64,000 nt of DNA from Candidatus Poribacteria bacterium (GCA_964291315.2 OZ219753.1:2528001-2592000), one strand, 5' to 3'; shown: positions 8,741-47,535, counted from the first letter of the stretch. Notes: generated by a model not told the origin, from the sequence alone. A program made the numbers and translations.

Positions 8741-11700
8741 ATGCCGAAAATCAGTCTCAAACCTACTCATAAACCGCTCTGCGATTATTACGCCACGCTG
8801 CAGGCATACAACCAGCACGACATCAGACATGAAGGTGCGGTGAGCTCTCCGTTCGAGGCACTCCTGCACGTCTGCGCGAAGCAGATGAAAGCGACGCTCA
8901 TCCCCCAATATCAGATGCACGCCCCCAACGGAAACCGCATCGTTATTGACGGCGCAATCTTGGACGAATATAGCCTGCCGCTCGCCTACTGGGAGGCAAA
9001 AGATATTGATGACGATCTCGCGAAGGCCATTGAGGAGAAACGCGCGGCGGGGTATCCGCTAGACAACATCCTGTTCCAGAACCCACAGCGTGCTATTTTG
9101 TATCAGAACGGAGCAGAGGTGCTCGATGTAGACATTACTGCCCCGGTCTCTCTGATCGCTGCCCTGGAAGGTCTATTCGCTTATGTGCCGCCGGCACTGG
9201 AAAATTGGCAGTCGGCTGTAAAAGACTTCAAGGAACATGTGCCGGCTCTCGCAGGCGAGTTGAAAGAGCTCATTAACCAGCGACACGGGGTGGATACGGC
9301 GTTTCAAGCAGCGTTCTCCAACTTCTATGAGACCTGTCGCACGGCAATTGACCCTGCACTCTCACAGGATGCGGTCGAGGAGATGCTGATCCAACATATC
9401 CTCACCGAACGGATCTTCCGCACGGTGTTTAATAACTCCGCCTTCACTCGCCGGAATATCATCGCACGCGAGATTGAAAACGTGGTTGACGAACTGATCC
9501 GACAAGCATTCAGTCGGGAAGAGTTTCTAGCACCCTTAGATCGTTTCTACATCGCTATTGAACAGGCGGCGTTATTCTGCAAAGACTTCTCACAGAAGCA
9601 GCACTTCCTCAATACGTTCTATGAGCAGTTTTTTCAAGGGTTCTCCGAAGATACAGCTGATACACACGGTATCGTCTATACGCCACAGCCGATCGTGGAT
9701 TTTATGGTCAACAGCGTGCAACATATATTAGAGACCGAGTTTGACCGCTCGCTGTCGGACGCGGGCGTGCATATCATAGACCCGTTTGTCGGCACGGGCA
9801 ACTTCATCGTGCGGCTGATGCCCTACATTCAAGGCACGGCACTCGAGACAAAATACCGGAAGGAGCTGCACTGCAGCGAGGTGATGCTTTTGCCGTATTA
9901 TATTGCGAGTCTGAACATTGAGCAGGAGTATTTCCGTCGGACGGGTGCGTATCTGCCGTTTGAGGGGATAGTGCTGGCGGATACGTTCGAGCTGCTTGAG
10001 CAGGAGCAGGGACAGCTCTTCACGCGTGAGAACACGGAGCGGGTGCAGGAGCAGAAGTCGGCGGATATGTTCGTAGTGATCGGGAATCCGCCCTACAACG
10101 CCGGGCAGCGGAATGAGAACGACAAGAACAAGAATAGGAAGCATCCGCTCATGGATGCGAGAGTTGCGGAGACGTATGTCAAAGACTCTGCAGCACAGAA
10201 CCCGAATAAGCTCTATGATCCGTATGTGAAGGCGATCCGGTGGGCCTCCGATCGTATTGGATCGGAGGGTGTTGTGGCTCTGGTAACGAATAATAGTTTT
10301 CTGGATGGCATCGCGTTTGATGGGGTGAGACAGCACCTTGCGGAAGACTTCGATGCGATTTACATACTTGACTTAGGCGGAAATGTGCAACGGGGATTAA
10401 AGGTCTCTCATGCGAATGTATTCAACATTCGGATAGGGGTGAGTATCAACCTATTCGTGAAAAACAGAGACAAGTCATCAGAGAGACCGCAGATATTTTA
10501 CTATTGCACGGATGAGTTGTGGAATAGAGATCAGAAGTTTGCGTTTCTGAAGGAGTGCCAGCATGTGGGCGGTGTTGCGTGGCAGCCCATTGAACCCGAT
10601 GCGCGACATGCGTGGCTCACCGAAGGGCTGGCACCTGAGTTTGACACCTTTATTCCGATGGGAGCTAAGTCAGCGAAGACTGCACAAGGAACGGGATCGG
10701 GCGCGATTTTCAAAACCTATAGTAACGGTGTGAAGACCAATCGTGATGCGTGGGCTTACAATTTCAACCGAGACGCGCTCACTGAAAATATAAGTCGGAT
10801 GATTGAAAATTACAACGCAGAAGTGGGTCGTTGGACACAACGGACAAATAGAGAGACGAACGTTGATAATTTTGTGATTTATGATGATACGAAAATCAAG
10901 TGGAGCTTAGACTTAAAGGGAGAGCTGGAGGGTGGCCACACAACTGAATATAGTGATGCTAAGACTCGTGTATCTCTCTATCGTCCCTTTACGAAATCAT
11001 TTCTTTACTTCGACCGAACGATGAACAATAGCGTGTACCTATTTCCATCTATCTTTCCGACCTTAGAGGCAGAGGCAGAAAATCAGGTTATGCAGATAAA
11101 GGTTGGACGGGAATGGCCAATGTTCGCACTGATGACTAACAAAATCCCCGATGGTTTGCCACAAGGTGGTTCTCAATGCTTTCCGTTCTACACCTATGAT
11201 GAAGACGGCACAAACCGCCGCGAAAATATCACCGACTGGGCACTATCTGAATTCCGCTCTCACTACAAGGACGATAGCATCAGCAAGTGGGACATCTTCC
11301 ACTATACCTATGGACTCCTACATCATCCGGACTATCGAGAGAGATACGAGGCAAACCTCAAACGCGATCTGCCGCATATGCCGTTCGCGACAGACTTCTG
11401 GGCGGTCGCTACCGCAGGCGTAAAGCTCGCAGAGCTCCACGTCAATTACGAAACCGCACAGCAGTTCCCGTTGAAATACAGAGAAACGCCCGACACGCCG
11501 ATAGACTGGCGCGTGGAGAAGATGAAGTTGTCTAAAGACAAAACACAGTTGAAATATAACGAGTTCTTGACGTTGGAGGGCATTCCAGCGGAGGCGTTTG
11601 CGTATCGGTTAGGCACTCGTTCAGCGTTGGAGTGGGTGATAGATCAGTATCGCGTCAAAACAGACAAGCGGAGCGGGCTGCTCAATGATCCGAATTGTGC

Positions 11701-11821
11701 GGATGCGCCGCGCTATATTGTAGATTTAGTGGTGCGGGTTATCACTGTCAGCCTAAAAACAGTAGAAATTGTTAAGAGCTTGCCGGAATTATCTTTAGAC
11801 TCTGGGTCACCTGGACCTTAA
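8741..11821 (+). CDS. Type IIG / ISP-like single-chain restriction-modification enzyme (nuclease + N6-adenine MTase + LlaBIII-like specificity domain; no helicase)
   Basis: IDG...WEAKD PD-(D/E)xK-like motif, GIVYTPQPIVDF, DPFVGTGNF, GNPPY, YRPF, YGLLHHPDYRERY..NLKRDLP. Confidence 0.88.
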   Translation: MPKISLKPTHKPLCDYYATLQAYNQHDIRHEGAVSSPFEALLHVCAKQMKATLIPQYQMHAPNGNRIVIDGAILDEYSLPLAYWEAKDIDDDLAKAIEEKRAAGYPLDNILFQNPQRAILYQNGAEVLDVDITAPVSLIAALEGLFAYVPPALENWQSAVKDFKEHVPALAGELKELINQRHGVDTAFQAAFSNFYETCRTAIDPALSQDAVEEMLIQHILTERIFRTVFNNSAFTRRNIIAREIENVVDELIRQAFSREEFLAPLDRFYIAIEQAALFCKDFSQKQHFLNTFYEQFFQGFSEDTADTHGIVYTPQPIVDFMVNSVQHILETEFDRSLSDAGVHIIDPFVGTGNFIVRLMPYIQGTALETKYRKELHCSEVMLLPYYIASLNIEQEYFRRTGAYLPFEGIVLADTFELLEQEQGQLFTRENTERVQEQKSADMFVVIGNPPYNAGQRNENDKNKNRKHPLMDARVAETYVKDSAAQNPNKLYDPYVKAIRWASDRIGSEGVVALVTNNSFLDGIAFDGVRQHLAEDFDAIYILDLGGNVQRGLKVSHANVFNIRIGVSINLFVKNRDKSSERPQIFYYCTDELWNRDQKFAFLKECQHVGGVAWQPIEPDARHAWLTEGLAPEFDTFIPMGAKSAKTAQGTGSGAIFKTYSNGVKTNRDAWAYNFNRDALTENISRMIENYNAEVGRWTQRTNRETNVDNFVIYDDTKIKWSLDLKGELEGGHTTEYSDAKTRVSLYRPFTKSFLYFDRTMNNSVYLFPSIFPTLEAEAENQVMQIKVGREWPMFALMTNKIPDGLPQGGSQCFPFYTYDEDGTNRRENITDWALSEFRSHYKDDSISKWDIFHYTYGLLHHPDYRERYEANLKRDLPHMPFATDFWAVATAGVKLAELHVNYETAQQFPLKYRETPDTPIDWRVEKMKLSKDKTQLKYNEFLTLEGIPAEAFAYRLGTRSALEWVIDQYRVKTDKRSGLLNDPNCADAPRYIVDLVVRVITVSLKTVEIVKSLPELSLDSGSPGP

Positions 11822-11938
11822 CACCCAATTCTCTTTCATTTTCTTTCATTCAACGGCGTTACCGATGCTTTTTGGATCTCTAACTCTTTTTTTATTTTCG
11901 TTAACACTATCTTTTATTATAGCGCTGATAAAACCGAT

Positions 11939-14287
11939 ATGCGAGAAGCTCTGTCTATTTTCTTGATTTTCCTTATTTTTGCCGCGTGCAGTAAAGATAC
12001 TCCGCAGACTAAGGTCTCCCCACAATTTGTGGCACAATATCAGAAAGGGATTGACGCGCTCGACGCAAGTAAATTTGCTGAGGCAGAAGAGGCGTTTCAG
12101 CGGTGTTTGCAAATGGATCCCAATGCCCACGAGGCTGGCATGCAGTTAGGACGCACCTACATCAGACAGCTGAAATTTGCCCGGGCCGAAGAGACCCTAC
12201 AGACTTTGATACGTCTGCTGGAGCAGGCACCTGAGGCGAAGGGTATGCTTTCGAAAGCATACCTAACATTGGCACAGGTTTTTAGTTATCAACAGCGATT
12301 CTCTGAGTCTACTCTCGCTCTCACCAAGGCGCTGGAGGTAAATCCCGACGATACCAATGCCCGTATTCGACTCGGCTATTTCTTGGGAGCTCCACAACAG
12401 ATGCTGGTGCCAGATCTGTCAGCATCTAAACGGCAATTTGAAAAAGTCTTGGAATTTGAACCCGATAACCTTGAAGCAATGCTACAACTCGGGCTAGCAG
12501 AATTTCGGCTTGGTGAAACCGACAAGGCAGCTGAGAGGTTTAAAAATATCATTCAAAATTACCGGCGCCACTCTGGGGCTTACTACTATCTCGGGGTCTA
12601 TCATCTCCGACACGGCAACCCGGAGAAAGCCGTTGAGAACTTTAAAGAGGCTCTCCGTCTAAAACCGCGCGACCCCGAAACCTTGTGGAATTTATGGACG
12701 GCTTATACCCAACTCGGTGGCTACCCTAAAAATTTACCAGCTGAATTCAGGGTAGCCGTCAGCGAAGATAGTCATCATCAAAGCGTCTTTCTTGCTAACC
12801 GTCCACAGCAGATACGAAAAAGACAATTTACGGATGTCGCTCCTGACTTAAAAATGGACAAGGTAGATGGTGGCCGCGGCAGCGCCTGGGGAGACTATGA
12901 TAATGATGGCAATTTGGATATCGTTGCTGTCGGGACCTATCAACCGCATGTCCTCTATCATAATAACACGGATGGAACGTTCACAAATGTGGCGGAGCAG
13001 GCAGGAATTGCTGATCCGAGAGGAGGGTGGGGCTCGATTTTCGCAGATTACGATAACGACGGCTACCTCGATCTTTACATCACGAGGGGCGGTTGGTCCG
13101 GCGCAGCCGAAAACACGCTTTATCATAACAACGGCGATGGCACATTTACAGATGTCACGCATGCTGCAGGAGTCGCTGATCCACAAAGCAGCTTCTGTGC
13201 AGCCTGGGCGGATTACGACAACGACGGATACCTGGACCTCTATATTGCGAACGGGGTCATCGGGGACGGCGCAGCGAACGTCCTATATCACAACAATGGT
13301 GATGGCACTTTCACCAATAGAGCTGACATCGCCGGCGTAGCGAATACGGGGAACTCCCTCGGAACCGCCTGGGGAGATTACGATAAAGACGGACATATTG
13401 ATCTGCATGTCATCAACTACGGGCAGTCTAATGTTCTCTACCGCAACAACGGAGACGGGACGTTCACGGATGTAACCGCAACAACCGGTATGAATCTCTC
13501 TGTTACGGACGCCTTCGTCACCTTCTTTTTAGACATAGATAATGATGCAGACCTCGACATTTTCATTTCGAATTCAGGAACGTTCCAAGCCTTTATCGCC
13601 GGTCAAATTACGGGGAGCGCCACGCACGATAGCGACCGGCAAGTGCTGTATCAGAACAACGGTGACGGCACATTTACAGATGTCACCAAGCAGGCCGGTT
13701 TGTACCACGCTTATGGAGCGATGGGGGCAAATTTCGGGGACATAAATAGCGACGGTTATGTTGACATCTATCTCGCTACCGGGGCACCACAGATGGGAAG
13801 ACTTGAACGCGATGCTCTCTTCCAAAACAACGGCGACGGCACCTTTACCGATGCAACCAGCACTTTAGGCCTGGGCAACATTGGAAAAGGCCATGGGGTA
13901 ACGTTCGGCGATGCTGACGCTGACGGTGATGTCGATATCTACGTTCCCGTCGGAGGAGCATTTATCGGCGACCAGTGGCACAATCTCTTCTATCAGAATG
14001 CTGGAACTGGAAACAACTGGCTTACTGTGAAACTGGTTGGTGTGGAGAGTAATCGTGACGGTATCGGATCTAAGGTTACTGTGAGTGTCGGTGATAGCAT
14101 CATCTACAGAGAAGTCAGCGGCGGTGGTGGGTTTGGTTCAACTAATAGTCTACCGCTTGAAATCGGTCTTGGAACGCATCCAAAAGTTGATACTCTTGAA
14201 GTCATTTGGCCCTCCGGTCACATAGATACGCATCGCAACCTGTCTGTTAACCAGAAAATCGTTGTCACTGAGGGAAGCAGGCTATGA
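11939..14287 (+). CDS. Lipoprotein with TPR repeats + FG-GAP repeats + ASPIC/UnbV (CRTAC1-like)
   Basis: Lipobox FAAC; N-terminal TPRs; repeated WGDYDNDGxLDL and NNGDGTFTDV; SNRDGIGS...WPSG. Confidence 0.9.
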   Translation: MREALSIFLIFLIFAACSKDTPQTKVSPQFVAQYQKGIDALDASKFAEAEEAFQRCLQMDPNAHEAGMQLGRTYIRQLKFARAEETLQTLIRLLEQAPEAKGMLSKAYLTLAQVFSYQQRFSESTLALTKALEVNPDDTNARIRLGYFLGAPQQMLVPDLSASKRQFEKVLEFEPDNLEAMLQLGLAEFRLGETDKAAERFKNIIQNYRRHSGAYYYLGVYHLRHGNPEKAVENFKEALRLKPRDPETLWNLWTAYTQLGGYPKNLPAEFRVAVSEDSHHQSVFLANRPQQIRKRQFTDVAPDLKMDKVDGGRGSAWGDYDNDGNLDIVAVGTYQPHVLYHNNTDGTFTNVAEQAGIADPRGGWGSIFADYDNDGYLDLYITRGGWSGAAENTLYHNNGDGTFTDVTHAAGVADPQSSFCAAWADYDNDGYLDLYIANGVIGDGAANVLYHNNGDGTFTNRADIAGVANTGNSLGTAWGDYDKDGHIDLHVINYGQSNVLYRNNGDGTFTDVTATTGMNLSVTDAFVTFFLDIDNDADLDIFISNSGTFQAFIAGQITGSATHDSDRQVLYQNNGDGTFTDVTKQAGLYHAYGAMGANFGDINSDGYVDIYLATGAPQMGRLERDALFQNNGDGTFTDATSTLGLGNIGKGHGVTFGDADADGDVDIYVPVGGAFIGDQWHNLFYQNAGTGNNWLTVKLVGVESNRDGIGSKVTVSVGDSIIYREVSGGGGFGSTNSLPLEIGLGTHPKVDTLEVIWPSGHIDTHRNLSVNQKIVVTEGSRL

Positions 14288-15675
14288 GTGAGAGTACGCA
14301 CAATCCCCCGAAGTCAGCCCTGCTCACGACGGATAACATGGCAATTTTTGTGGATTATTATCAACTCACGATGGGACAGGCAGATTTCAATGCCCAGAAC
14401 GATGCAGTTATTACAGCAAATTACTACGTCCGCGAGATACCACAGGGAGAATATCTCATCGCCGCTGGACTAGAGCAAGTTATCCACTACATCTTAAATT
14501 TACACTTCAGCGACACTACGCTTGATTGGTTGGTGCAGCGTGGACATCTGCATGCTGATTATCTCGCCTCACTCAAAGATTTCGGTTTCGAGGGAACTGT
14601 CTTTGCAGTTCCCGAAGGCACACCCGTTTTCCCGAATGAGCCGATCATCAATGTCACGGGCCGCTCCCGGGATGTCCAAATTTTTGAGACCTACCTGCTT
14701 TGTGTCATGAACTTTCAAACGTTAATTGCCACAAAGGCATCGAGGATTGTACAAGCAGCACGCGGCAGACCAGTTTTTGATTTTGGAGCGCGGCGGGCAC
14801 ATGGCCGAGACGCCGGTATTCTGGCCGCCCGCGCTTCCTTCATTGGCGGCGCTAACGGGACATCGTTGGTACTTGCAGGCCACTATTTCGATATTCCGTA
14901 TGTGGGCACGATGGCTCATAAATTCATTGCTGAACGGCCCACTGAATTAGAGGCCTTCCGCGATTACGCGACAGCTTTCCCGAACAGCACCACACTCTTG
15001 ATTGATACGTACGACACAATTCAAGGTGCGCGGAACGCTTGCATTGTCGCAAAAGAGATGGCAGCATCTGGGGTAAAGTTAGAGGCAGTCCGGTTGGATA
15101 GCGGGGACCTCTCTAAACTTAGCAAACAGGTGAGACAGATCCTTGATGCTGAGGGACTTGACTACGTCCAAATTATAGCAAGCCATGAACTTGATGAATT
15201 TCAGATAGACTCCCTACTCGAAAACGACGCACCGCTAGATGGCTTTGGGGTAGGCACCCGGCTTGCTACGGGGGCTAATTTCAACTCGCTCACAGGGGAA
15301 GGAGCTCCTTCTGCGTTAGGCGGCGTTTATAAAGTTGTTGAAAGCGATGGCAGACTCGTTGGAAAACAGGCGCTTGACGAACCTGCCAAAGCCACAGTAC
15401 CGGGCAAGAAGCAAATCTATCGCATCACGGATGCTGAACAAAATTATAGCAAAGATCAGATAGCTCTGTTAGATGAAGAAGTTTCCGAGGGAGTCCCCCT
15501 TCTGATTCCGATTATTCAAAATGGGGAATTGGTATATCAGTTTCCGAAACTACATGAAATTCAGTCGCGAACAATTGCAGAGCTCAACAAATTACCAGAT
15601 TGTCATAAGCGTTTGATGGAAGCGACCCCTTACTACGTCGATCTACATTCTTCACTATCGGCAGCTAGCAAATAG
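14284..15675 (+). CDS. pncB: Nicotinate phosphoribosyltransferase
   Basis: DYYQLTM, DFGARRAH, GTMAH, LIDTYD, VRLDSGD, GVGT, GGVYK. Confidence 0.95.
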   Translation: MSESTHNPPKSALLTTDNMAIFVDYYQLTMGQADFNAQNDAVITANYYVREIPQGEYLIAAGLEQVIHYILNLHFSDTTLDWLVQRGHLHADYLASLKDFGFEGTVFAVPEGTPVFPNEPIINVTGRSRDVQIFETYLLCVMNFQTLIATKASRIVQAARGRPVFDFGARRAHGRDAGILAARASFIGGANGTSLVLAGHYFDIPYVGTMAHKFIAERPTELEAFRDYATAFPNSTTLLIDTYDTIQGARNACIVAKEMAASGVKLEAVRLDSGDLSKLSKQVRQILDAEGLDYVQIIASHELDEFQIDSLLENDAPLDGFGVGTRLATGANFNSLTGEGAPSALGGVYKVVESDGRLVGKQALDEPAKATVPGKKQIYRITDAEQNYSKDQIALLDEEVSEGVPLLIPIIQNGELVYQFPKLHEIQSRTIAELNKLPDCHKRLMEATPYYVDLHSSLSAASK

Positions 15676-15715
15676 CTGTTGATAAATGTGCTAAGTACCG
15701 TCAACCGACACCGTA

Positions 15716-17689: not shown

Positions 17690-17691
17690 TG

Positions 17692-18315: not shown

Positions 18316-18341
18316 AGACTTTACCCCCTTAAATATAATTA

Positions 18342-26404: not shown

Positions 26405-26744
26405 GCAACCTCGGCGCTAAGCGTCTGTAACCCTATGTGGGACGTGGCTTCTTTAAGTGTTAATTTCTGCTGCGAAAAAAAGGGATTTATCCGAAAGTGT
26501 AACATCTTATTTTTTTGAATTCTTAATTCAAATTTATATCGTATATGATAATATATATAATGTTGGGATGCAAATTTTTTTATGAATGGTTAAAAAGGCT
26601 CTGTTGTGCCCAAAATTTTAAATTTCTGGTGTTAGAGAGTCTAGAAATCGCTATACCCGGTTAGGTAATCTTTACGTTTTCGTGTGCTGTTTCCGAACTG
26701 TCCGCGGGGTGAGTGGTACACATGAGAGCCTGAAAAAGATAAAA

Positions 26745-26788
26745 AGGGCGCGATAGCTATTAGGAGGGCCCTACCGCTATCACGCCCT
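26745..26788 (-). terminator. Probable intrinsic terminator of the FGE-domain gene
   Basis: agggcgcgatagc...gctatcacgccct inverted repeat followed by a T-run on the minus strand. Confidence 0.6.
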
Positions 26789-26851
26789 ACTTTGGAGCTT
26801 CAGTGCCTTTCAGCGATTTATCCGCGGATAAAAAGCGCAAGCCATAAAGTT

Positions 26852-29560
26852 TCATGGGGCTACAGGCTTCACACACCGAAAACCGAATACAGTGGCACCA
26901 CCCCAAGTCGAATATCCATACCGACTAGTGACCGAGAAGCCTCGATAGGACCAGTCGCCACCGCGAACGACACGGTTTTGGGGCTGTCCATACTTATTCG
27001 AGGGCGAGAAAATATCCAGGTTCGCGTTATAGTTATCTAACAAGTCTTGGATACTGGTTGCAATCGACAACGACACCGGATTGTGGGTTGGGGATTTTGC
27101 GTAGTAGTCAGCATCATACGCATCGAGACACCACTCCGCTACATTCCCGACCATATCATAGAGGCCGTACCCGTTCGGCGGATAACTACCGACTGCCGTC
27201 GAACCACGGGGGTTATTATAGTTCGCCTTGGTTTTATCTAGGGTGTCTCCCCAGGGATATCGCTTGCCGGCTAAGCCGCCGCGTGCGGCATACTCCCACT
27301 CTGCTTCGGTTGGCAGTCGCTTTCCTGCCCATCTAGCATATGCCATCGCACCCCGCCATCTTACAGAAATGACAGGATGATTCTCATAGCCTGCCCGTGG
27401 GCGATACACACCGTCTACTAAGTTAATGGTTGTATAAGCACCACCATTAATATCCACCCACCGCCACCAGCCATTTATATGTTTGCCCATTGCGTTGAGA
27501 AATGCCGCGTATTCAGTGTTTGTTACTTCGTGTGTATCCATGTAAAATGCGTCTAAAGTGACAGTGTGAACAGGGCGTTCATCGGTATCACCCGTGTTGC
27601 TGCCCATTTGGAAGGTGCCCGCGGGGATCAACGCCATGCCCGCAGGAGCATCGCTTTGATCAGGCACCGGAGTGGTATCCGGGTTTCCACTCGTGATATC
27701 CGGGGTCTCTGAACCGCGGGTTGTCGTAAATGAGGCAGTGGACACCGACTTCACACATCGAAAACCGAGATCGTTGCCCGTGCTCATCGGGAAACTATAG
27801 TCACGATTCGACACGCGAACAACCGAGGCTGAATAGAACCAAGAGCCGCCACGCAACACACGCTGCGAATCAACGGTTGTATAGGTGTCTATTACGGTGC
27901 TGTCGCCTGACAACGGGTTCTGCGCGGGAGAGGTGTCATAGAAGTTGTCGAGATACGTATCGAGACACCACTCAAATACGTTTCCTGCCATATCGTAGAG
28001 ACCATAGCCGTTCGCAGCGTATGCCCCGCCTGCGGTTGTGTCCGCGATATTCCATCCGTAGTTCGCCTGGGTCGTGTCTATGGTATCGCCCCAGGGATAT
28101 TGCTTGCCGGCTAAGCCGCCGCGTGCGGCGTATTCCCACTCGGCCTCGGTGGGGAGTCGTTTGCCTGCCCATGCGGCGTATGCCATGGCGCCATACCAAG
28201 TGACGCGAACGACAGGATGATTCTCATAGCCTGCCTTGACACTATATCTTCCGTCTATCCGTTCTATGCGGGCATCACTGCTACCGAGAGCCAACCACTT
28301 ATGGTCTGCGTCGGCGTGTTTGCCTTTTGCGTTGAGAAATGCGGCGTATTCTGCGTTCGTCACTTCATGTGTGTCCATATAAAACGCATCTAAAGACACT
28401 GCGTGAACGGGGCGTTCATCGGCATCGCCGGTGGTGCTGCCCATTTGGAAGGTGCCCGCGGGGATCAACACCATCCCCGCAGGAGCTGGCGGGTTTACCG
28501 GAGGCGTTGGCGTTTCAGGTGGCAGTGGAGTGCCATCGTCACCCGCATTCCCTTTACCATCATCACTGTCATCTATAGGAGCTACCGGCACCCAATCAGC
28601 AGTCACCGTCACGTCAGAACCGCTCTCATATACCATAAACCCATCTGACTGCACTAAATTCGAACGATCCGAGTAACTCAGACCCGACTGCTCTACTGTC
28701 GCAGAAACCTGATCCGAGACCAGTCGAAACGAACGACGCGGATGCAACCAGAACCCAAACGTCTCCGAACTCGCCTCCGGTTTTAACGCTCCCGCAGCAT
28801 TGGCAATCCGGAAATAAATCTCGTTATCCGCCCAGGCATGAAATACGCGCCCCTTCCCAGGACGAATGCGATACGTGCCGCGCGTCCGAAAACCCTCCGG
28901 ATAACCTTTCTTCGAGTTCTCCAGCTTCCACGTCGCGTAGACTACATATAGATCGGCTTCCGTGGCATTTGTTATCACGCTCGCTACCCACGCAGGCGGA
29001 GCAACATCTTCACCAGGCCGACCACCATCGTCTCCGAGTTCGTCATTCGGCGGAGCAGTCGGCTGCCCATCTAGCGACACCCACTCCGGAGTGACAACCA
29101 CTGCGGAGCCACCCGTATAGCTGACAAATCCCTCTAATTGAACCAACTGATTGTTCGGACGATCCGAGTAAAGCAGCTGATCTGTCGTCACAGAGGTATC
29201 GAGCGTCTGTGAGACGACGCGGAAGGAGCGCTTCGGATGAGACCAGAACGCAGAAGCCGTCGTGCCGCTATTCGCTTTTATCGCACCATCTGCGTTTGAA
29301 ATACGGAAATAGATGTTGTTAGTGTCCCAGGAATAGAACACTCTGGACTTCCCAGGATCAAGCCGGTAGGAGCCGCGCGTCCAGAACCCTGCGGGGATGC
29401 CTTTGTTGCTATTCGCTGCCTGCCACGTGCTCTTGATCACATAGATCTCTTCAAGCGTGTTATTGGTTACCATGTTCTCTTGCCATTCTGCAGCCGCGAA
29501 CGGAACGCTCACAAATATGAGCGCAGCAAAAATGGATAGAGCCACTATTGTTTTTTGCAT
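26852..29560 (-). CDS. Secreted protein with two ~135-aa N-terminal repeats (DUF1036-like) and two FGE-sulfatase (SUMF1, C-type lectin fold) domains
   Basis: Signal peptide; duplicated N.T...YV..TW...KG.P.GF.TRG.YR..PGK.RVF.W; two copies of MxLIPAGTFQMGS...RLPTEAEWEYAARGG...NGYGLYDM.GNV.EW...RGG.W...GFRCV. Confidence 0.92.
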   Translation of the reverse strand: MQKTIVALSIFAALIFVSVPFAAAEWQENMVTNNTLEEIYVIKSTWQAANSNKGIPAGFWTRGSYRLDPGKSRVFYSWDTNNIYFRISNADGAIKANSGTTASAFWSHPKRSFRVVSQTLDTSVTTDQLLYSDRPNNQLVQLEGFVSYTGGSAVVVTPEWVSLDGQPTAPPNDELGDDGGRPGEDVAPPAWVASVITNATEADLYVVYATWKLENSKKGYPEGFRTRGTYRIRPGKGRVFHAWADNEIYFRIANAAGALKPEASSETFGFWLHPRRSFRLVSDQVSATVEQSGLSYSDRSNLVQSDGFMVYESGSDVTVTADWVPVAPIDDSDDGKGNAGDDGTPLPPETPTPPVNPPAPAGMVLIPAGTFQMGSTTGDADERPVHAVSLDAFYMDTHEVTNAEYAAFLNAKGKHADADHKWLALGSSDARIERIDGRYSVKAGYENHPVVRVTWYGAMAYAAWAGKRLPTEAEWEYAARGGLAGKQYPWGDTIDTTQANYGWNIADTTAGGAYAANGYGLYDMAGNVFEWCLDTYLDNFYDTSPAQNPLSGDSTVIDTYTTVDSQRVLRGGSWFYSASVVRVSNRDYSFPMSTGNDLGFRCVKSVSTASFTTTRGSETPDITSGNPDTTPVPDQSDAPAGMALIPAGTFQMGSNTGDTDERPVHTVTLDAFYMDTHEVTNTEYAAFLNAMGKHINGWWRWVDINGGAYTTINLVDGVYRPRAGYENHPVISVRWRGAMAYARWAGKRLPTEAEWEYAARGGLAGKRYPWGDTLDKTKANYNNPRGSTAVGSYPPNGYGLYDMVGNVAEWCLDAYDADYYAKSPTHNPVSLSIATSIQDLLDNYNANLDIFSPSNKYGQPQNRVVRGGDWSYRGFSVTSRYGYSTWGGATVFGFRCVKPVAP

Positions 29561-29615
29561 GTTGTCTCTCCTTTTATCTGTGAAGATACACAGAAGTGTA
29601 TGTTTTTATTTATAC

Positions 29616-29775
29616 TTAACGTGGGTTTGATAAATAAGCCACTGTTTTCTTTGTCCAAACAGAACCTTTTATTATCCACTGTAAGGTTATTATATCTTCA
29701 CTCGAAACAGGGTTTCCGATGCGTATTGTATCGCTTTTCGGCAAAATAGCCAACCGTTTTCTTGTGTCCGACAAA
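29616..29775 (+). mobile_element. IS982-type left-end remnant (IR + leader + first ~19 transposase codons)
   Basis: ttaacgtgggtttgataaata matches the IR at 25807; ATG 29719 gives MRIVSLFGKIANRFL; homologous to 47612-47780. Confidence 0.7.
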
Positions 29776-39517: not shown

Positions 39518-39546
39518 ATATAAACTATAGAAAAAAGGAATAGTGA

Positions 39547-40293: not shown

Positions 40294-40312
40294 TAGAATT
40301 TTGAGAGAGAAA

Positions 40313-40335
40313 AGGGCAGATATTTGCTTCTGCCC
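40313..40335. terminator. Hairpin between convergent HAD and lexA genes
   Basis: gggcaga...tctgccc, A-rich on the left and T-rich on the right. Confidence 0.55.
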
Positions 40336-40373
40336 GTTAGTTTTGTTAATGTTTGAGAAGTAAAGTGTGAAGG

Positions 40374-41039: not shown

Positions 41040-41088
41040 GAGTTAAGCCTCCTGCAACTGATCATAGGGTATTAGTTAATATGTTTAT

Positions 41089-41117
41089 ATTATACTATAT
41101 GCAGGTTAAGAATGCAA
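41089..41117 (-). promoter_or_regulatory. Sigma70 promoter of lexA (TTGCAT-N17-TATAAT)
   Basis: Near-consensus hexamers with a 17-bp spacer. Confidence 0.7.
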
Positions 41118-41171
41118 GAAAAAAACAAATATTTATTTTTTTCTATGGTCCAAAGGCGCTTGCCATAAAAT

Positions 41172-41197
41172 TGAAACCGAAAAGTGCTGCTAACGTC
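41172..41197 (+). promoter_or_regulatory. Putative ECF promoter TGAAAC-N16-CGTC upstream of the redoxin gene
   Basis: Matches the SigW/SigM-type consensus and spacing. Confidence 0.5.
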
Positions 41198-41213
41198 TTA
41201 ATTAAAGGGAAAC

Positions 41214-41915
41214 TTGGAAATGCAAAATCTACCTCTTTTTATCTCTCTCTTTACTAATGTCCGTATCATCTTTGAGAAGTTTCATCAGATCACAGCTGTC
41301 GTGTATCCTGGTTGTGTTATAGGTGCCCTATTTATCGGGGTAGTGAGTTCGGGGATTGCGAAAGAGCAGGCGGAGAAAGTAAAGCTTGATAGCGTCGTCA
41401 AGGACTTTAGTCTTAAAGACGTTAACGGGACATCTCACACTCTGTACAAGCTCGGCGAGGAAAAGTCTGCTGTTGTTGTCTTATTTCTTGCTACACAGTG
41501 CCCTATAGTGACTGATTATGTGGAACGTATTGTTGCTTTGGTTAAGGCTTACGACGACAAAAACGTGCAATTTATTGGTGTCAATTCAAATAAACAGGAA
41601 AACGTTAAAGAGATCTCGGAATACAACCACAAACACGGGTTGGAATTTCCTGTCCTAAAGGATCTAGAAAATAATATCGCGGATTATTTTGGGGCAAGAA
41701 GAACGCCAGAAGCGTTTCTACTCGATGCAGAGCATGTGCTCCGCTACGCTGGGGCAATAGACAATAGTCCAAAAGAACCGATAAAACAGTATCTCCGAAG
41801 TGCTTTAGATCTAGTAGTTGCTGGAAAAGAGATTCCCAAGGATTCCAGAAAGACAAGGGCAGTTGGCTGTACAATTAAGCGGGTACGGAAATCCAACGTA
41901 GATAGGACCCCGTGA
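41214..41915 (+). CDS. Exported thioredoxin-like redoxin (AhpC/TSA family)
   Basis: DFSLKD..G, FLATQCP, GVNSN, FPVLKD, A.RTPEAF, YAGAID, GCTIK; start uncertain. Confidence 0.85.
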   Translation: MEMQNLPLFISLFTNVRIIFEKFHQITAVVYPGCVIGALFIGVVSSGIAKEQAEKVKLDSVVKDFSLKDVNGTSHTLYKLGEEKSAVVVLFLATQCPIVTDYVERIVALVKAYDDKNVQFIGVNSNKQENVKEISEYNHKHGLEFPVLKDLENNIADYFGARRTPEAFLLDAEHVLRYAGAIDNSPKEPIKQYLRSALDLVVAGKEIPKDSRKTRAVGCTIKRVRKSNVDRTP

Positions 41916-41973
41916 ATATTTATCTGCTTCCTTGTTTTTGGGGTCGATGTCACCGTGGAGGTGAAAAAACAAG

Positions 41974-44451
41974 ATGTTTCGATTGTTTTACCACTGTTTT
42001 CAAGCAGTTCTAAGTCTGTTTTGGGGGGCATGTATTCTTGTATTTATAGCGATTTTCGTGGGTATCGGATTTGCAGGCGGGATATTCTTAGCGTGTTGGA
42101 AAGATGTACGAGGCATCGATCTTAATCGACTCGAATATAATGTAGACACCGAAACTTGGAGACAACACTTGGAGGTTTATTCTTCTGTTTGCGAAGTACG
42201 AGAGACAGATAAAGCGGTGTTTTTGCTTGATAAATTGGAACGACTGAAATATAAGAAGGTCGCCGAGATCATCCCCCGATTGAGCGAACCGGGCGAGTAC
42301 ACCGATACATTGGACGCGAACGGAAATCGAGTGATCCGTATCCATCTGCGAGATTTTGAGTATCCGTACCTTGACGTGGCGGCTGGACATGTGCAAGTTG
42401 CAGTTAGAGACGAGCGGATTGTAGCCATCCGGAGTGAAGCTGGGGTTGTACGCCAGAATTTTTACCTTGAGCCGGAGAAGATGAGCGAATTTACTGACGA
42501 ACAAGGTGCCACGCGCCGTTTGATTCCGTTGCTCCAAATGCCTACAAAGTTGACAGGGGCATTTATCGCTATTGAGGATCACCGCTTTTCGAACCATTGG
42601 GGAGTTGATATTATACGTCTCGGCGGAGCAGTGAAGAATACTTTGTTAAATGGGGTCCGATTGGCCGGGACAAGTACACTCACACAACAGTTGGCGCGCA
42701 ATATTTATCTGTTTGATCAGAGATCCGTGAGAGACATTGGCCGGAAATCGAAAGAGATACTCCTTGCGGTGAGAATTGAGAAGGTTTTTTCTAAAGATGA
42801 GATCTTAGAGCGGTATTTGAATTATGTTGACTTGGGCAGATCGAGATATGGGGGCAAAACGTTTCACGGTGTTCAGCAAGCAGCACTCGGATATTTTGGG
42901 AAACAAGTGTCGGAGCTCGACTACCACGAATGCGCTTTGCTCGCAGCGCTTCCAAAGGGACCTTTTGCTTTTTCACCATTTTCCAATCCTGAGGATGCCA
43001 AGAGACGTCGTAATATGGTGCTTGACAGAATGTTAACGGAAGAATACATTCCTGCGTCCGAGTGGCGTGTCAGTCGAAACGCTCCGTTACTCCCCCCAAA
43101 TGTGGAGGAGAGACGTACAAAGATCTCCGCAAAGGAGGCAGGCCACTTCCTTCAACATGTGCGTGATGAACTTGTCCGACTTCCTGAACTTAAAACGAAA
43201 TTGTACAGCGAAGGGTTAAAGGTTTATACAACCATAGACATGTCAATGCAAGCGGTTGCTGAGAAAGAAGTCGCGAATCACCTCCGTTATATGGACAAGA
43301 CTTATGGCGGGGCGCGGCTCCCGGATTACGATACTTATAAGCTGAGACCAGACGGTGATCCGATAAATAACTATCTACAAGCCGCACTCATCGCCTTTGA
43401 ACCCAAGACAGGCCATGTTAAAGCGATGGTAGGCGGACGCGATTACAATATCACAGCGACGAAAATTGATCACTACAACCGCGCCCTTGGAAGCGCGAGG
43501 CGACAACCCGGGTCCGCTTTCAAACCGATTGTTTTCGCCGCCCTCCTAGAAGAACCGTCTATTTTAACGCCCGCAACAGTTATCGTTGATAGTAGCTGGG
43601 GCATTGTGCCTTTTCCTGGACAGAAGACATGGTATCCTCGAAACTACAGCAGGATGTTTAGAGGTAACGTCAATATCCGGGATGTGCTCACAAAATCGAT
43701 CAATGTTCCTACGGCGAGAGCGGTGCTTGAGACACCAATAGGTGACAACGGTATATGGGAAGGAATCAATCGCGTCGTGGACCTATCAAAACGGATGGGT
43801 ATTAAGAGCCCGATGGACCCAAAGCCTGCACTCTCCTTAGGTGCGTCTGTTATGACAGTCCTTGAATTGACATCCGCTTATGGGGTCTTTGCAAACGGAG
43901 GCGTTCAGATGGAACCGGTGCATATCCAATATATTCTTGACACAACGGGCAACATAATTTATCCATCTGACAACCATCAGGTAGAACGTCGGCGTGTCTT
44001 GGACGAAAAAGTAGCGTATCAGATTACTTCATACTTGGAAAACGTAATTCAAAATGGAACGGGTAGGCGCGCGAAACACATAATGGGGCTTACTCGGCCT
44101 GCAGCAGGTAAAACAGGAACCACTAATGACAATGTAGATGCTTGGTTCGTCGGCTATACCGCAGATCTAGTTGTCGGTGTGTGGGTAGGACTTGATAAAA
44201 ATCTGCCGAACCGCCGTAACTACAACCAAGAGGGGGCAAAAGCGGCGCTGCCAATTTGGGCGCAATTTTTAATTGATGCAGCGCGGGGGCCCCACAAGGA
44301 ATTCCCAGTACCTGATGGCATTGTCTTCCGAGACATTGATAAGAAAAGTGGAAAGCTCAAAAGGGACGGTGAATGCCCAGAAGAAAACATTAGTACGGAG
44401 CCTTTTATTGAAGGACAGGAACCCAAAAACCTTTGTAACCTGCGACATTAA
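41974..44451 (+). CDS. Class A penicillin-binding protein (transglycosylase/transpeptidase), PBP1b-like with a UB2H-like insert
   Basis: EDHRF, GTSTLTQQLARN, SKDEILERYLN, QPGSAFKP (SxxK), SIN, GKTGT. Confidence 0.93.
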   Translation: MFRLFYHCFQAVLSLFWGACILVFIAIFVGIGFAGGIFLACWKDVRGIDLNRLEYNVDTETWRQHLEVYSSVCEVRETDKAVFLLDKLERLKYKKVAEIIPRLSEPGEYTDTLDANGNRVIRIHLRDFEYPYLDVAAGHVQVAVRDERIVAIRSEAGVVRQNFYLEPEKMSEFTDEQGATRRLIPLLQMPTKLTGAFIAIEDHRFSNHWGVDIIRLGGAVKNTLLNGVRLAGTSTLTQQLARNIYLFDQRSVRDIGRKSKEILLAVRIEKVFSKDEILERYLNYVDLGRSRYGGKTFHGVQQAALGYFGKQVSELDYHECALLAALPKGPFAFSPFSNPEDAKRRRNMVLDRMLTEEYIPASEWRVSRNAPLLPPNVEERRTKISAKEAGHFLQHVRDELVRLPELKTKLYSEGLKVYTTIDMSMQAVAEKEVANHLRYMDKTYGGARLPDYDTYKLRPDGDPINNYLQAALIAFEPKTGHVKAMVGGRDYNITATKIDHYNRALGSARRQPGSAFKPIVFAALLEEPSILTPATVIVDSSWGIVPFPGQKTWYPRNYSRMFRGNVNIRDVLTKSINVPTARAVLETPIGDNGIWEGINRVVDLSKRMGIKSPMDPKPALSLGASVMTVLELTSAYGVFANGGVQMEPVHIQYILDTTGNIIYPSDNHQVERRRVLDEKVAYQITSYLENVIQNGTGRRAKHIMGLTRPAAGKTGTTNDNVDAWFVGYTADLVVGVWVGLDKNLPNRRNYNQEGAKAALPIWAQFLIDAARGPHKEFPVPDGIVFRDIDKKSGKLKRDGECPEENISTEPFIEGQEPKNLCNLRH

Positions 44452-44538
44452 ATAAAAATATCTCTCTACACTTTTATCACGCTTCTCCGGTTAAAACTCG
44501 TTATGAAAAAGTTCACAAGACACGATACCCTATATTAC

Positions 44539-44600
44539 TAACGTAAGTTTGATAGATACGTCCGTGTTTACTTTGTCCAAAGAGAACGCTTTGGGTATGC
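44539..44600 (+). mobile_element. Short IS982-type left-end remnant overlapping the 3' end of the mod gene
   Basis: taacgtaagtttgatagatacgtccgtgtttactttgtccaaagagaac aligns with the 25807, 29616 and 47612 copies. Confidence 0.6.
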
Positions 44601-47535
44601 TAAACTATGCAGGCTCATCACCTCATTTCCGCGCGGGTCGATGACTTTGACTGCGACCTGTTTATGCGGTCCGGGACGGAACGGAAACGACGTTGTACCA
44701 CTGAACCGCTCAAACTGCTCTTCATCAATAACGCCTTTCAAGGCACGGGCGATCTTCTGCCACGCCGTCTTGTCCGGGAAGAAGGCTTGTGTGATGCAGA
44801 ACGTGCGTCCATCGTAGTCGGTATCCACAAACCACGCCGCCACCTTATTCGCACCCGCAGAACGCACGGTGTTGTCTGACGGGTCGTAGATGTCCACGCC
44901 CTCCATCTCGACAATATATTCCTCTTCGCCGGCTTCCTCAAGGGTTGTGCGGGGCATTCCGAAGACGGTAAAGAGCTGGGTTGAGGGTGTCTCCTTGAGG
45001 AGTCCGCCCATTGCGACGTCGGGGTTGATGTGTGCCATATGGATACGGACCCTGGGGTTCGGATCGTCTTGGATAACTGCTTGTGCCGCGCCGTCAAAAC
45101 TGAACCCTGCGAAGACAAGTTCATCATAGCCGCGGCGGGAGGCGATGGGTAGACACGCCTCGACTTGCATTGCGGTGATGGGGCCGTGCTGTGGTCCAAA
45201 TGCGACGGCGACGGAGGATTCGGTATCGCAGTGTTTCCAAGTGCCTTCTGCGTGGAGGATATCGGCTTCGATGGGGTCGAGGGTGTCGAATGTCAATGTG
45301 TTGTTATTAGGGAATCGGATGCCGTCGTGTCGGAGGTGATGTATCATCTGTTCGAGGTATGCCTCGGCATTGACTGCTTGGTGCGTGTCGGTCTCGGCAT
45401 CAAAAGTGGTTTTGACTTCTTCGGGTTGTGCTGTGCTGGACGAATCAAGGTCGAGTGACTCTTCTGCGGGTTGCACTGCCTCTACGGTGAAGGGACCGGT
45501 GACGCGCACTCGTTTTCTGTTGATGTGTGGCTGATCGACGAGTTCTTCGGTTTCAGATGCTGCGGTGATGCATGCGTTGATGTCGTGCATCTTTGCTTGC
45601 CATGCTTTGCGATAGTCTATGAGAGCGTGTTGTAGTGTTTTTGGCCAGTCGGGGTCTGTATCGAAGGGTACTTGCCAGTCGTGCCAGTGTGTATCTGGTA
45701 GCTGCCAGCGCCTTTTGTCTGCATCCGTGATGGCAGTTTTGCCGTGTTTTTTCTGCTTATGCTTGAGTTTTGCGAGGAGTTTTATGCGAAGCGGGGGGGG
45801 TAATCTGTGATAAGTTGTTGTTCAGAGCATCCAACTTCTCTTTCAATATCGGCTCATGTTTCTCAAAAATCGGATCCAGGGCAGTGTTTTGGGCGATACT
45901 TTTGAGGGTGATATGCGGAGCTTGTTTATTGACGAAGCCACCCGCGATGCCTTTTGACTCATCCTTGAGCTTATAGTAATCAAAGGCTCCTGTCAATAAG
46001 CGTTGTCGGGCTAAGGCGACAGCCACGCGGCTGGTATCAATGGTTATCCAGCGTCTGCCCCACTGTTCAGCAACATAGGCGGTGCTGCCGCTTCCACAAG
46101 TTGGATCGAGGACAAGATCTCCAGGATCTGTGGTCATGAGAAGGCAGCGTTCAATGACTTTTGTTGAGGTTTGAACAACATAGGCTTTATTTTGCTCTGA
46201 CATTTGATTATCCCATAGGTTTGCTATTAAAGCGTAGGGAAAATCACCGTGAAAATATTTATAGCGGACAGAGTTTCCTTGACTAATTATGCGGTCTGCT
46301 GCTGCCAAACGGCTTAGCCCATCTTGCGAACATCGCCAGCCGCGAGAACGGGAAGCAGCAGGTAAATATTCTCTATTACGGAACATAAAAGGCATCCTAG
46401 ATGTATCACTGCCACTAGTTGAATACAAACTATTGCTTGAAAAGAATTTAGCATTTCCTTTATTTAATTTCTTCGCATCGGAAGCATTAACGATTTCGCC
46501 ATCAATATCTGCTAAGTTAAATCGTACCGAGTCTGCCTTTTTCTCCTCGTAAAGACGATGAAATTTTAGTAAAGAAATATCTTTACTATACCAAAGAATA
46601 TAATCGTTCAATATAGATAGGTTTTTCCTTGTAGAAGTACTACGGGTTTTAAAAACAATCTCTCCAACAAAATTCTCACTCCCAAACACTTCATCCATGA
46701 CACATCGGACGCGATGGACGTTCTCGTCCCCGATCTGCACAAAAATACTGCCGCTATCGGTCAACAACTCCTTCGCAACAATCAACCGATCTCGCAGATA
46801 CGCAAGATATGAGTGGATACCCAAACGCCACGTATCCCGATACGCCTTGATCTGCTCACGCTCACGCGTCAAGTCCTGGGGCCGATCTCTTACATCCCGC
46901 TGAAAAGTGCTCGGTTGAAAATTAGACGCAAACTTGATGCCATACGGCGGGTCTATGTAGATCATCTGCACCTTGCCACCGAGATTTTCACGTTGTGCAA
47001 GGGAACTCATCACCGTGAGACTATCCCCAAGGATCAGGCGATTCGCCCAATCCACATCGTGCTGGTAAAAGTCAACGGCTGTGCTATAATCCTGCTGCGG
47101 ATCAGCGAAGAGTTCACGTTGGACGTTTTGGCGCTTTGCGGTTTTCAAGATTGCTTTGCTGCTGATGCGTTCGTGGATGTGGAGGGCCACGGGGTCGACG
47201 CTGAAGGCTGCTGTCTCCTGTTTGCCTGCCCATTCAAGCCAGGGGGCGTGGTGTCGGAGTGCCTCGGCGAGCGTCTTCGCCTCCTCTACGGAGAGCGGTC
47301 GCTGCTGTGCGGTGTGGAGGAGTTCGGGGAGTTTGTCTGCGTCTGCGTCTAGGTCGGATCGGAGGCGGGGTGGCAGGTGTGGGTTGTATGCGTATTGCCG
47401 TTTCGGGGGTTCTTGGATCTTCCCTTGTGCGGCGATGCCTGCGGGCGGGTTATTTTTTCGGGTAGCAGTACTGTGTCGGTAGTCGCGGACCTCTTTTGGC
47501 TTAGTGGTGCGTTTTGTGCGTTTTCTTCTTGACAT
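44568..47535 (-). pseudogene. Type III Mod-like N6-adenine DNA methyltransferase, frameshifted in a C8 tract (phase-variable or pseudogene); no res gene adjacent
   Basis: NRLILGDSL, YIDPPY, YVVQT..KVIERC, DPTCGSG.T; C7 instead of C8 at 45793-45800 joins both ORFs via WQVPFDTDPDWP...YRKAWQAKMHDINACI (988 aa). Confidence 0.88.

Follow-up and report, generated by a model that had tools for sequence, protein, structure and literature searches.

Restriction-modification (R-M) genes of Type I, Type III, and Type IIG shuffle their specificity modules, the target recognition domains (TRDs), as domains. Here we analyze a 64,000-nucleotide stretch of DNA, hereafter the window, in which methyltransferase genes with conserved arms around an exchanged specificity region also switch abruptly between G+T-rich and C+A-rich composition at silent codon positions. 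The window is G000:C4:2528001-2592000 of a four-contig, 4.40-Mb assembly, and its source genome is a Candidatus Poribacteria metagenome-assembled genome (MAG), a sponge symbiont. The closest described elements of this compositional kind are GRINS (Nivina et al., PNAS 2021; PMC8256042), defined as duplicated DNA of >500 bp with >80% identity in which mean |GC skew| and mean |TA skew| both exceed 0.15 in 150-nt windows. According to the main text of that paper, GC skew in GRINS correlates with TA skew (r=0.70), third codon positions are affected most, G+T-rich and C+A-rich stretches switch abruptly within 1 kb, and the elements are associated with gene conversion and with diversifying domains that bear specificity. 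Its authors give the mechanism as unknown and propose a life cycle in which skew accumulates, spreads by conversion, and erodes. The carriers listed there are polyketide synthase genes, mainly of Streptomyces, together with transposases, integrases, phage genes, and actinobacterial endonucleases. The words "restriction," "methylase," "Poribacteria," and "sponge" do not occur in that main text, the supplements of which may name further gene classes, and among the papers listed by full-text searches, GRINS were treated for megasynthases only and none named them together with restriction-modification.

We favor, at a probability of roughly 0.6, the reading that the skewed blocks of the window are GRINS-type elements in multi-copy genes, here mostly R-M methyltransferases of the Candidatus Poribacteria genome. 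A sequence-only reading of the same DNA had raised the possibility of an undescribed diversification process; that suggestion did not hold, as the pattern matches GRINS.

Composition flips at silent sites of multi-copy genes

The genes at issue are an ISP-like methyltransferase-specificity gene, a Type III Mod-like methyltransferase open reading frame (ORF) with the neighboring ORF340, and an FGE-sulfatase gene (coordinates in Table 1). The sequence-only reading had started from hand counts of G+T per 60 nt, all 11 of which were reproduced exactly. Two of them (44821 and 45301) had been assigned to the Mod gene; here they fall in ORF340, a separate ORF, although that part belongs to the C terminus of the same protein in relatives. 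When the window was divided into 1066 non-overlapping windows of 60 nt, G+T averaged 30.5 with a standard deviation (SD) of 4.3 (1st percentile, 21; 99th percentile, 41), and the counts of 19-20 and 40-44 noted by eye are tail values of this distribution. At this SD, counts of 20 and 40 are expected by chance in a gene of ~50 windows. On raw 60-nt statistics, evaluated over 1865 ORFs of at least 300 codons, the ISP-like gene is ordinary (78th to 88th percentile) and the Mod ORF is extreme (cumulative sum, 99.9th percentile; autocorrelation, 99.8th percentile).

When a 90-nt table was split by codon position, the signal was located at third positions and was not predicted by the amino acids. 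We quantified it as K3, the G+T fraction at third codon positions, and as a range statistic, the normalized cumulative range of the K3 residual relative to genome codon usage per amino acid. The ORF set was a crude longest-ORF call without a gene finder, in which wrong-strand ORFs could only inflate the single-copy tail. Among its 2997 ORFs, the range was 3.68 for Mod (99.8th percentile; asymptotic Kuiper p=2e-10), 2.92 for the FGE gene (99.0th; 3e-6), 2.72 for the ISP-like gene (98.8th; 2e-5), and 2.57 for ORF340 (98.6th; 9e-5). These four rank first to fourth among the window's 45 ORFs, the fifth reaching 2.00; the FGE gene had been flagged by eye as a weaker case. Genome-wide, 49 ORFs exceeded a range of 2.5, versus 0.54 expected.

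Segmentation of K3 with a penalty like the Bayesian information criterion (BIC) gave successive values of 0.22, 0.66, 0.44 (46317-45823), 0.26, and 0.56 along Mod and ORF340; 0.49 (8741-9877), 0.77, and 0.54 (10328-11818) along the ISP-like gene; and 0.51, 0.72 (29194-28466), 0.37 (28465-27875), and 0.55 along the FGE gene. Shuffled controls (30 shuffles per gene) yielded a mean of 1.0 segment. The change points of the ISP-like and FGE genes vanish under a stricter penalty, whereas under the BIC-like penalty they appear in the genes and not in the shuffles. Persistence of the skew at third and fourfold-degenerate sites had been set beforehand as a test, and the flips passed it: fourfold G+T runs 0.19, 0.62, 0.32, 0.15, and 0.56 along Mod and ORF340 and 0.52, 0.78, 0.60, 0.26, and 0.63 along the ISP-like gene, a span of 0.15-0.78 between segments that reproduces the third-position skew of GRINS. 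Adjacent segments differed with Fisher p values from 4e-9 (Mod, 0.19 versus 0.62) through 2e-4 (ISP-like, 0.52 versus 0.78) up to 1e-2. In the ISP-like family as a whole, fourfold G+T reaches 0.89 at codons 387-417.

Several ordinary causes were considered and rejected. Amino acid composition predicts a K3 of 0.48-0.52 in every segment, and codon context, whether of the next base or of the next amino acid, gives the same 0.48-0.52 throughout. Codon optimality or transcription-linked asymmetry is ruled out by the ribosomal-protein genes, EF-G, EF-Tu, and GroEL, whose K3 lies at 0.41-0.61 without a common direction. A long hairpin between C/A-rich and G/T-rich halves is likewise ruled out: a search for long inverted repeats found none, and 20 of 20 shuffles fold more stably than the native sequence. 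The composition flips in these genes are a real, specific feature at silent sites.

Such skew is nearly absent from single-copy genes; the sequence-only reading had not noticed it in housekeeping genes. A range of >2.5 was found in 0.2% of single-copy ORFs (5/2071), 5.0% of the 101 ORFs with two copies, 5.6% of the 36 whose families number three to five, and 24.6% of ORFs in families of at least six (34/138); the median range was >2.0 in 8 of 25 multi-copy families. The five single-copy ORFs comprise four DNA methyltransferases and one SbcC-like ATPase. Position along the gene matters as well. In 17 of the 25 multi-copy families, G+T is higher over the final 90 codons than over the first 90 (Wilcoxon p=0.005), and single-copy genes show no positional G+T trend (mean slope, -0.003). 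A first-90-codon K3 at least 0.2 below that of the rest occurs in 7 of 1624 single-copy genes, 1 of 113 members of families of two to five, and 16 of 114 members of families of at least six, the reverse (first 90 codons G/T-rich) in 2 single-copy genes and in none of either family class. C/A-rich 5' ends are also present in single-copy methyltransferase genes. As to the families themselves, paralog expansions in the assembly include 26 lamin-tail-domain, 19 plus 14 FGE-sulfatase, 16 ISP-like methyltransferase, and 13 Uma2 putative endonuclease genes, and a Mod query detected 65 genome stretches similar to N6_N4 methyltransferases.

Exchange between paralogs and the GRINS thresholds

Repeated module exchange, proposed in the sequence-only reading, was borne out in both methyltransferase families. 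The ISP-like gene has 16 copies in the genome at 66-100% amino acid identity, plus four distant relatives. Among the 16 paralogs the nearest neighbor switches block by block, identity falls to 0.53-0.65 in the variable region versus 0.76-0.95 in the flanks, and the distance matrix of the variable region shows no correlation with the matrix of any conserved block (r, -0.13 to 0.06). Between the Mod start codon and the stop of ORF340, the six loci agree at ~87-100% of positions apart from 46200-46700, where identity drops to 0.15-0.53; in round terms, they share at least ~90% of their sequence outside the TRD and 30-50% within it. The sequences flanking the loci are unrelated. This drop in identity confirms the TRD limits that had been placed by eye. 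At 144 informative sites, the partitions of the six copies change every 20-150 nt. Because neighbors switch block by block, the variable-region matrix is uncorrelated with the others, and the Mod partitions change so fast, these data show repeated module exchange together with short-tract gene conversion. The association of skew with gene conversion between repeats that characterizes GRINS is thus present here, in the block-wise nearest paralog and in the Mod site partitions.

We emulated the GRINS definition with dc-megablast self-hits, applying the duplication limits and skew thresholds given above in 150-nt windows with a step of 30. Self-hits of at least 500 bp delimit 201 duplicated regions covering 480 kb of the genome, and four of these lie in the window: 8647-11823, 26743-29618, and the two Mod-locus blocks of Table 1, all within the duplication limits of GRINS. 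Both Mod-locus blocks pass the skew thresholds, as does the 3' block of the ISP-like gene (11200-11821; |GC| 0.17, |TA| 0.17, r 0.67). Genome-wide, 41 of the 201 regions (65 kb) pass. Their median r is 0.67; it is 0.22 for the remaining duplicates and 0.00 for unique DNA, and of 1-kb control segments taken from unique DNA, 6.7% exceed the skew thresholds. The 41 regions form 12 homology clusters, of which 8 overlap DNA methyltransferase genes, as assigned by Pfam and tblastn, and 1 overlaps Uma2 and FGE genes, the rest being unannotated. Along the blocks, composition shifts from C/A toward G/T in 9 of the 12 clusters (binomial p=0.15), among them all 5 whose slope has |z|>3.

The claim that each conserved block starts C/A-rich, ends G/T-rich, and resets at the specificity domain was upheld only in part. 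In the ISP-like gene, the G/T-rich segment ends at codon 529, adjoining the start of the variable region (~codon 537), and beyond that region the 3' block rises from a fourfold G+T of 0.26 at 11201-11440 to 0.63 at 11531-11818; the G/T-rich segment is mostly GC skew. In Mod, the drop in G/T comes in two steps, one at 46318, inside the TRD, and one at 45822, ~380 nt past the TRD and ~20 nt before a run of C's, and the C/A-to-G/T flips fall in mid-block. Coincidence of the switch points with allele breakpoints therefore appears partial; in the Mod family, recombination junctions occur throughout. A tie of the skew to the TRD as such was not sustained: the strongest C/A-rich stretch of Mod lies 400-1300 nt away from it, and the single-copy methyltransferase genes share the C/A-rich 5' ends.

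Origin and maintenance of the skew

In the reading that we favor, silent codon positions of the repeat blocks have been recoded into strongly G+T-rich or C+A-rich stretches, the sign of which changes inside a single gene. Frequent short-tract gene conversion keeps the blocks alike between paralogs while the specificity domains between them are swapped. Earlier strand-asymmetric transitions (C to T and A to G on one strand) would have laid the skew down on a block, and conversion would then have carried it to all copies, as in the GRINS life cycle; ordinary symmetric mutation now erodes it in this genome. Candidates for what exposed one strand include residence in a skewed chromosomal domain and single-stranded recombination intermediates, among others. 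If the blocks are GRINS-type elements, GRINS would extend from polyketide synthases to defense genes and to a new phylum, namely to dispersed multi-copy methyltransferases of an uncultured sponge symbiont, and skewed blocks would be linked to the arms that flank exchangeable specificity domains. Additions relevant to mechanism would be a possible block polarity, present-day erosion, and a base spectrum matching the genome's own strand asymmetry.

The present state of the skew was assessed from third-position synonymous singletons, polarized among the paralogs of four families. In C/A-rich regions, 36 singletons changed C/A to G/T and 12 changed G/T to C/A, on 336 versus 116 sites; in G/T-rich regions the numbers were 5 and 22, on 110 versus 390 sites. 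These counts correspond to per-site rate ratios of ~0.97 and ~0.81; a ratio of ~3 would be needed to maintain the skew. Because per-site rates are equal both ways, the intragenic skew is off mutational equilibrium, either eroding or held by selection against new changes. The same ratios give no support to the C>T and A>G deamination that the sequence-only reading had envisaged as an ongoing process.

The genome has a regional asymmetry of its own. Domains of 100-300 kb show strong keto skew, with GC and TA skews equal in sign and similar in size: C4 700-900 kb (up to +0.20), 1750-2050 kb (to -0.15), and 2700-2950 kb (to +0.13), as well as all of C1. Roughly two thirds of the genome lacks such domains, a layout unlike the usual two-replichore picture. 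The window's chromosomal region has no net skew. In the skewed domains, fourfold G+T is 0.77 on one strand versus 0.21 on the other, and single-copy genes at C4 720-840 kb have fourfold compositions of A.11, C.12, G.39, T.38 and, on the other strand, A.36, C.42, G.09, T.12. The intragenic segments resemble this domain, with somewhat more G+C (ORF340 1-240: A.29, C.55, G.08, T.08; ISP 391-540: A.09, C.13, G.62, T.16). Their skew thus involves both C/T and A/G choices at synonymous sites, as it does in the genome's strongly skewed domains and as had been read from the sequence. A paralog that resides in the strongest skew domain carries 30 singleton changes to G/T versus 8 to C/A, and because of this excess we conclude that the regional skewing process is active on the resident copy.

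Homologs outside this genome were compared in two sets. The first comprised 62 ISP-like relatives from sponge-associated MAGs, with a fourfold identity of 0.33-0.46 to the window copy. The contrast of codons 387-447 with codons 821-900 is positive in 60 of the 62 and that with the first 90 codons in 59 of 61; the block contrast is weaker than in the window genome (median, 0.17 versus 0.47). Its sign is kept in 9 of 10 clusters formed by single linkage at 0.5 fourfold identity, clusters that are still mutually related. A K3 of >0.6 was found in none of the N-terminal and post-variable blocks (0 of 61-62 relatives). Raw range exceeds 2.5 in 22 of the 62, and 17 of 18 Mod-type relatives with an intact N terminus have no more than eight G/T-ending codons among the first 30. 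The second set comprised 12 plasmid-borne Type ISP genes from seven bacterial classes, at 33-39% identity. The flip pattern was not seen in these 12 genes (range, 1.17-1.92; contrast above zero in 3, at zero in 2, and below zero in 7), which rules out the flips as an intrinsic property of Type ISP genes.

Several points weigh against the GRINS interpretation. By the thresholds, the whole ISP-like region 8647-11823 falls short (|GC| 0.15, |TA| 0.12, r 0.05), as do its 5' block 8741-10350 (0.11/0.11) and the FGE region 26743-29618 (0.12/0.14, r 0.30), with 0.23/0.12 at 28466-29194. Across 200 regions, skew strength is unrelated to paralog identity or copy number (rho, 0.01 and 0.11). Some single-copy methyltransferase genes flip too. 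A purely historical, eroding relic does not predict a sign common to 60 of 62 homologs with near-saturated silent sites and to 9 of 10 clusters. Lastly, the GRINS test was run on dc-megablast self-hits instead of the bowtie2 mapping of the authors' pipeline.

An alternative that we regard as unlikely, if well worth weighing, is a mosaic of strand histories, in which paralogs that had long resided in opposite orientations in skewed domains recombined into chimeras that then spread. The regional domains act on resident copies, paralogs are mosaics, and erosion is expected in the unskewed region of the window. Uniformly C/A-rich or G/T-rich homologs also exist among the relatives (L066, K3 0.33; L121, K3 0.60), where gene-wide K3 tracks the flanking context (r=0.58, n=71). 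However, this history predicts that flips take random signs and positions, whereas 60 of 62 relatives share a sign and none has an N-terminal or post-variable block with a K3 of >0.6, and 23 ORFs have C/A-rich first 90 codons versus 2 with the reverse. Concerted evolution in mixed contexts should, moreover, average the skew out.

Quite improbable, in our judgment, is deamination (C to T, A to G) on the 3' single-stranded tails of TRD-associated breaks repaired from a paralog, a running footprint that would leave blocks G/T-rich toward the 3' end on either strand. The block geometry, from C/A to G/T with a reset at or near the variable region, fits this model; so do the slopes of the GRINS clusters, above all the five strong ones, the G+T-richer last 90 codons of multi-copy families beside trendless single-copy genes, the intense recombination between paralogs, and the missing pattern in the plasmid Type ISP genes. 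It would also meet an objection raised in the main text of PMC8256042, that lagging-strand deamination cannot yield both signs on one strand. Against it, the singletons lack the needed excess, the count of cluster slopes is not significant, and the strongest C/A-rich stretch of Mod lies far from the TRD. Both the TRD and the outer gene borders would have to be break hotspots, of which these data give no sign. Spontaneous deamination of single strands is slow per event. Deamination on 3' tails is thus a geometrically attractive yet unsupported candidate for the mechanism. An equally long shot is a general rule for GRINS, by which each homology block bounded by heterology, whether a TRD or unique flanks, would run from C/A to G/T, the 3'-ending strand at either edge being G/T-rich, through tail deamination in ectopic repair or through favored, better-pairing tails. 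Were it true, the rule would supply the GRINS mechanism, and the shuffling of methyltransferase specificity in sponge symbionts would be a natural test system.

Selection on nucleic acid composition we consider very doubtful. It might act because G/T-rich 3'-ending strands favor RecA pairing and TRD exchange, or because C-rich, G-poor 5' mRNA is unstructured or loads Rho. RecA prefers GT-rich DNA. Purifying selection, too, would produce an excess of skew-breaking singletons, and selection would account for a sign conserved in homologs with near-saturated silent sites and for the C/A-rich 5' ends that several methyltransferase families share, even where the gene is single-copy. Over the first 900 nt of Mod, folding is less stable than in 20 of 20 shuffles (z=+1.9). 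Selection must, however, act on hundreds of single silent sites in a symbiont, and the pattern is missing from the 12 distant Type ISP genes and from ribosomal-protein genes, EF-Tu, and GroEL.

We give next to no credence to the view that there is no real feature and that the pattern comes from chance, from amino acid content, from the context or optimality of codons, or from picking windows by eye: the raw 60-nt percentiles of the ISP-like gene and its counts of 19 and 40, expected from ~51 windows at an SD of 4.3, suit that view, but it is contradicted by the third-position and fourfold tests, the one-segment shuffles, the flat composition and context expectations, and the directionless highly expressed genes.

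The genes, their surroundings, and known systems

The features of the window are collected in Table 1. The 1026-residue ISP-like protein combines in one chain a coupler (PF22240), an N6_Mtase/Eco57I domain (PF02384/PF07669), and Type_ISP_C (PF18135), that is, the coupler, gamma-class N6-adenine methyltransferase, and specificity domain of Type ISP enzymes. A Pfam search found no nuclease or superfamily 2 helicase-like domain in the 1026 residues, and in this it departs from Type ISP. Its best full-length match in PADLOC is REase_MTase_IIG PDLC03621, a 1024-position "Type IIG" profile. Eleven of the plasmid Type ISP homologs have annotated genes of ~4.7-5.0 kb and aligned to the window protein only from about its residue 154 on. 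A Rhizobium plasmid homolog annotated as "type ISP restriction/modification enzyme" (L142 538-3639) is 3102 nt long, about the length of the window gene. A short "Type ISP" form without the nuclease-helicase half thus occurs both in the window and on a Rhizobium plasmid. ISP-like homologs at 53-65% identity are present in many copies in sponge-associated Caldilineaceae, ten of them on one chromosome (L085, L088, L089, L092, L096, L103, L108, L114, L122, and L124), and singly in Latescibacterota, Pyrinomonadaceae, Parabeggiatoa, and a deltaproteobacterial MAG; further loci are L118, L126, L131, and L137. This distribution suggests that the ISP-like family may have moved between phyla.

In the Mod ORF, PF01555 covers residues 189-509, giving the N6/N4 methyltransferase with an inserted TRD that is expected of Type III Mod; a full-length relative matches PADLOC MTase_III PDLC03632 (983 positions; E=2.7e-169). 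No match to ORF340 was found in Pfam or NCBIfam. In 17 of 20 fetched homologous loci, the two parts lie in one open frame of 988-1033 codons, so that the Mod ORF represents the N-terminal two thirds, and ORF340 the C-terminal part, of a gene that in relatives encodes one protein of ~985 amino acids. Seven C's at the C8 run instead of eight would be predicted to rejoin the frames. No indels at the run were seen in the contigs of four public runs of one study, among which the source sample may itself be found. At conserved sites, runs of 8-9 G's or C's split each copy seen of several multi-copy methyltransferase families into two ORFs: 65 runs of at least eight occur across the assembly, and the split families are Mod (C8, 6/6), the Eco57I-type families numbered 6 and 7 (8 runs), the Type III families 9 and 15, and the MmeI-type family 8. 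Such runs could reflect phase variation, programmed slippage, or systematic homopolymer error.

No Res subunit, as expected for Type III, adjoins Mod, the genome beyond the neighborhood not having been searched for Res; the neighbors are a class A penicillin-binding protein (41974-44451) and UvrB (47804-49945). A 55-nt imperfect direct repeat (75% identity; 44540-44594 and 47613-47667) brackets the Mod/ORF340 module. It was rejected as a general trait of Mod copies: the left arm recurs at the ends of some other copies, the pair not generally. In runs X1-X3, summed contig depth over 44400-47800 is ~10-30x higher in the conserved Mod blocks than in the TRD and flanks of this copy, which fits many copies or strains with common arms; in two runs, contigs cross the TRD of this copy without differences. 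Long antisense ORFs of 157-202 amino acids accompany the skewed genes at 9728-10336 (-), 46813-47352 (+), and 27730-28203 (+). The first was considered as an antisense gene and read instead as a by-product, its frame being codon-aligned with the sense frame, where the scarcity of A-ending codons removes antisense stops. Annotators should be cautious: where genes of this kind show a long antisense ORF or unusual codon usage, these arise from the skew.

Table 1. Coordinates of features discussed in the text, counted from the first nucleotide of the window
Feature	Position	Strand	Remarks
ISP-like methyltransferase-specificity gene	8741..11821	+	1026 aa; Pfam domains; 16 paralogs
G+T-rich third-position segment of ISP-like gene	9878..10327	+	K3 0.77, fourfold 0.78
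Variable (specificity) region, ISP-like family	10352..11200	+	~codons 538-820
3' conserved block of ISP-like gene	11201..11818	+	C/A-rich start, G/T-rich end; passes GRINS thresholds
FGE-sulfatase gene, two FGE domains	26852..29560	-	Family of 19 copies; below GRINS thresholds
Duplicated block passing GRINS thresholds	44533..46194		|GC| 0.16, |TA| 0.21, r 0.67
ORF340	44568..45590	-	340 aa; C-terminal domain of same protein in relatives
G/T-leaning 3' end of ORF340	44571..44924	-	K3 0.56, fourfold 0.56
C/A-rich segment across Mod end and ORF340	44925..45822	-	K3 0.26, fourfold 0.15
Type III Mod-like methyltransferase ORF	45757..47535	-	592 aa, Pfam N6_N4_Mtase; one of 6 copies
C8 run between Mod frame and ORF340 frame	45793..45800	-	C8 in 6/6 copies
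Variable TRD of Mod, AT-rich	46200..46700	-	GC 0.27-0.38 in most 90-nt windows
G/T-rich segment of Mod, running into TRD	46318..47106	-	K3 0.66, fourfold 0.62
Duplicated block passing GRINS thresholds	46647..47671		|GC| 0.20, |TA| 0.29, r 0.93
C/A-rich 5' segment of Mod	47107..47535	-	K3 0.22, fourfold 0.19

Three known systems bear comparison. Replication-associated strand asymmetry shares with the window blocks its base spectrum at fourfold sites, where one strand has more G than C and more T than A, and the strength here equals that of the genome's most skewed domains. In contrast to such asymmetry, the sign flips every 0.3-0.9 kb along a single strand within one gene, in a region without net skew. 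TRD shuffling in Type I, III, and IIG R-M genes likewise has conserved arms flanking a hypervariable TRD that is exchanged between alleles or paralogs. Unlike the usual case, the genome holds 6 and 16 dispersed full-length copies, the arms bear skew, and no inverted silent cassettes or recombinase were found beside the window copies among the ORFs, including Pfam searches of 10 window ORFs with both neighbors of each gene among them.

GRINS come closest. The carriers differ, being DNA methyltransferase genes of a Candidatus Poribacteria MAG, and the repeats are dispersed whole genes rather than modules in one cluster. Part of the ISP-like gene and the FGE gene lie under the threshold of the GRINS definition. 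The polarity of blocks from C/A to G/T, with a reset near the variable domain, is seen here and was not found in the main text of PMC8256042. Otherwise the blocks and GRINS agree: both are duplicated over >500 bp at >80% identity and skewed most at third positions, the GC and TA skews being intense and positively correlated in the window's two Mod-locus blocks and ISP-like 3' block, though not along the ISP-like region as a whole (r 0.05); both contain abrupt switches from G+T-rich to C+A-rich stretches less than 1 kb apart in one gene; both are tied to gene conversion and to diversification of the part that determines specificity; and in both, copies stand at different stages, erosion included.

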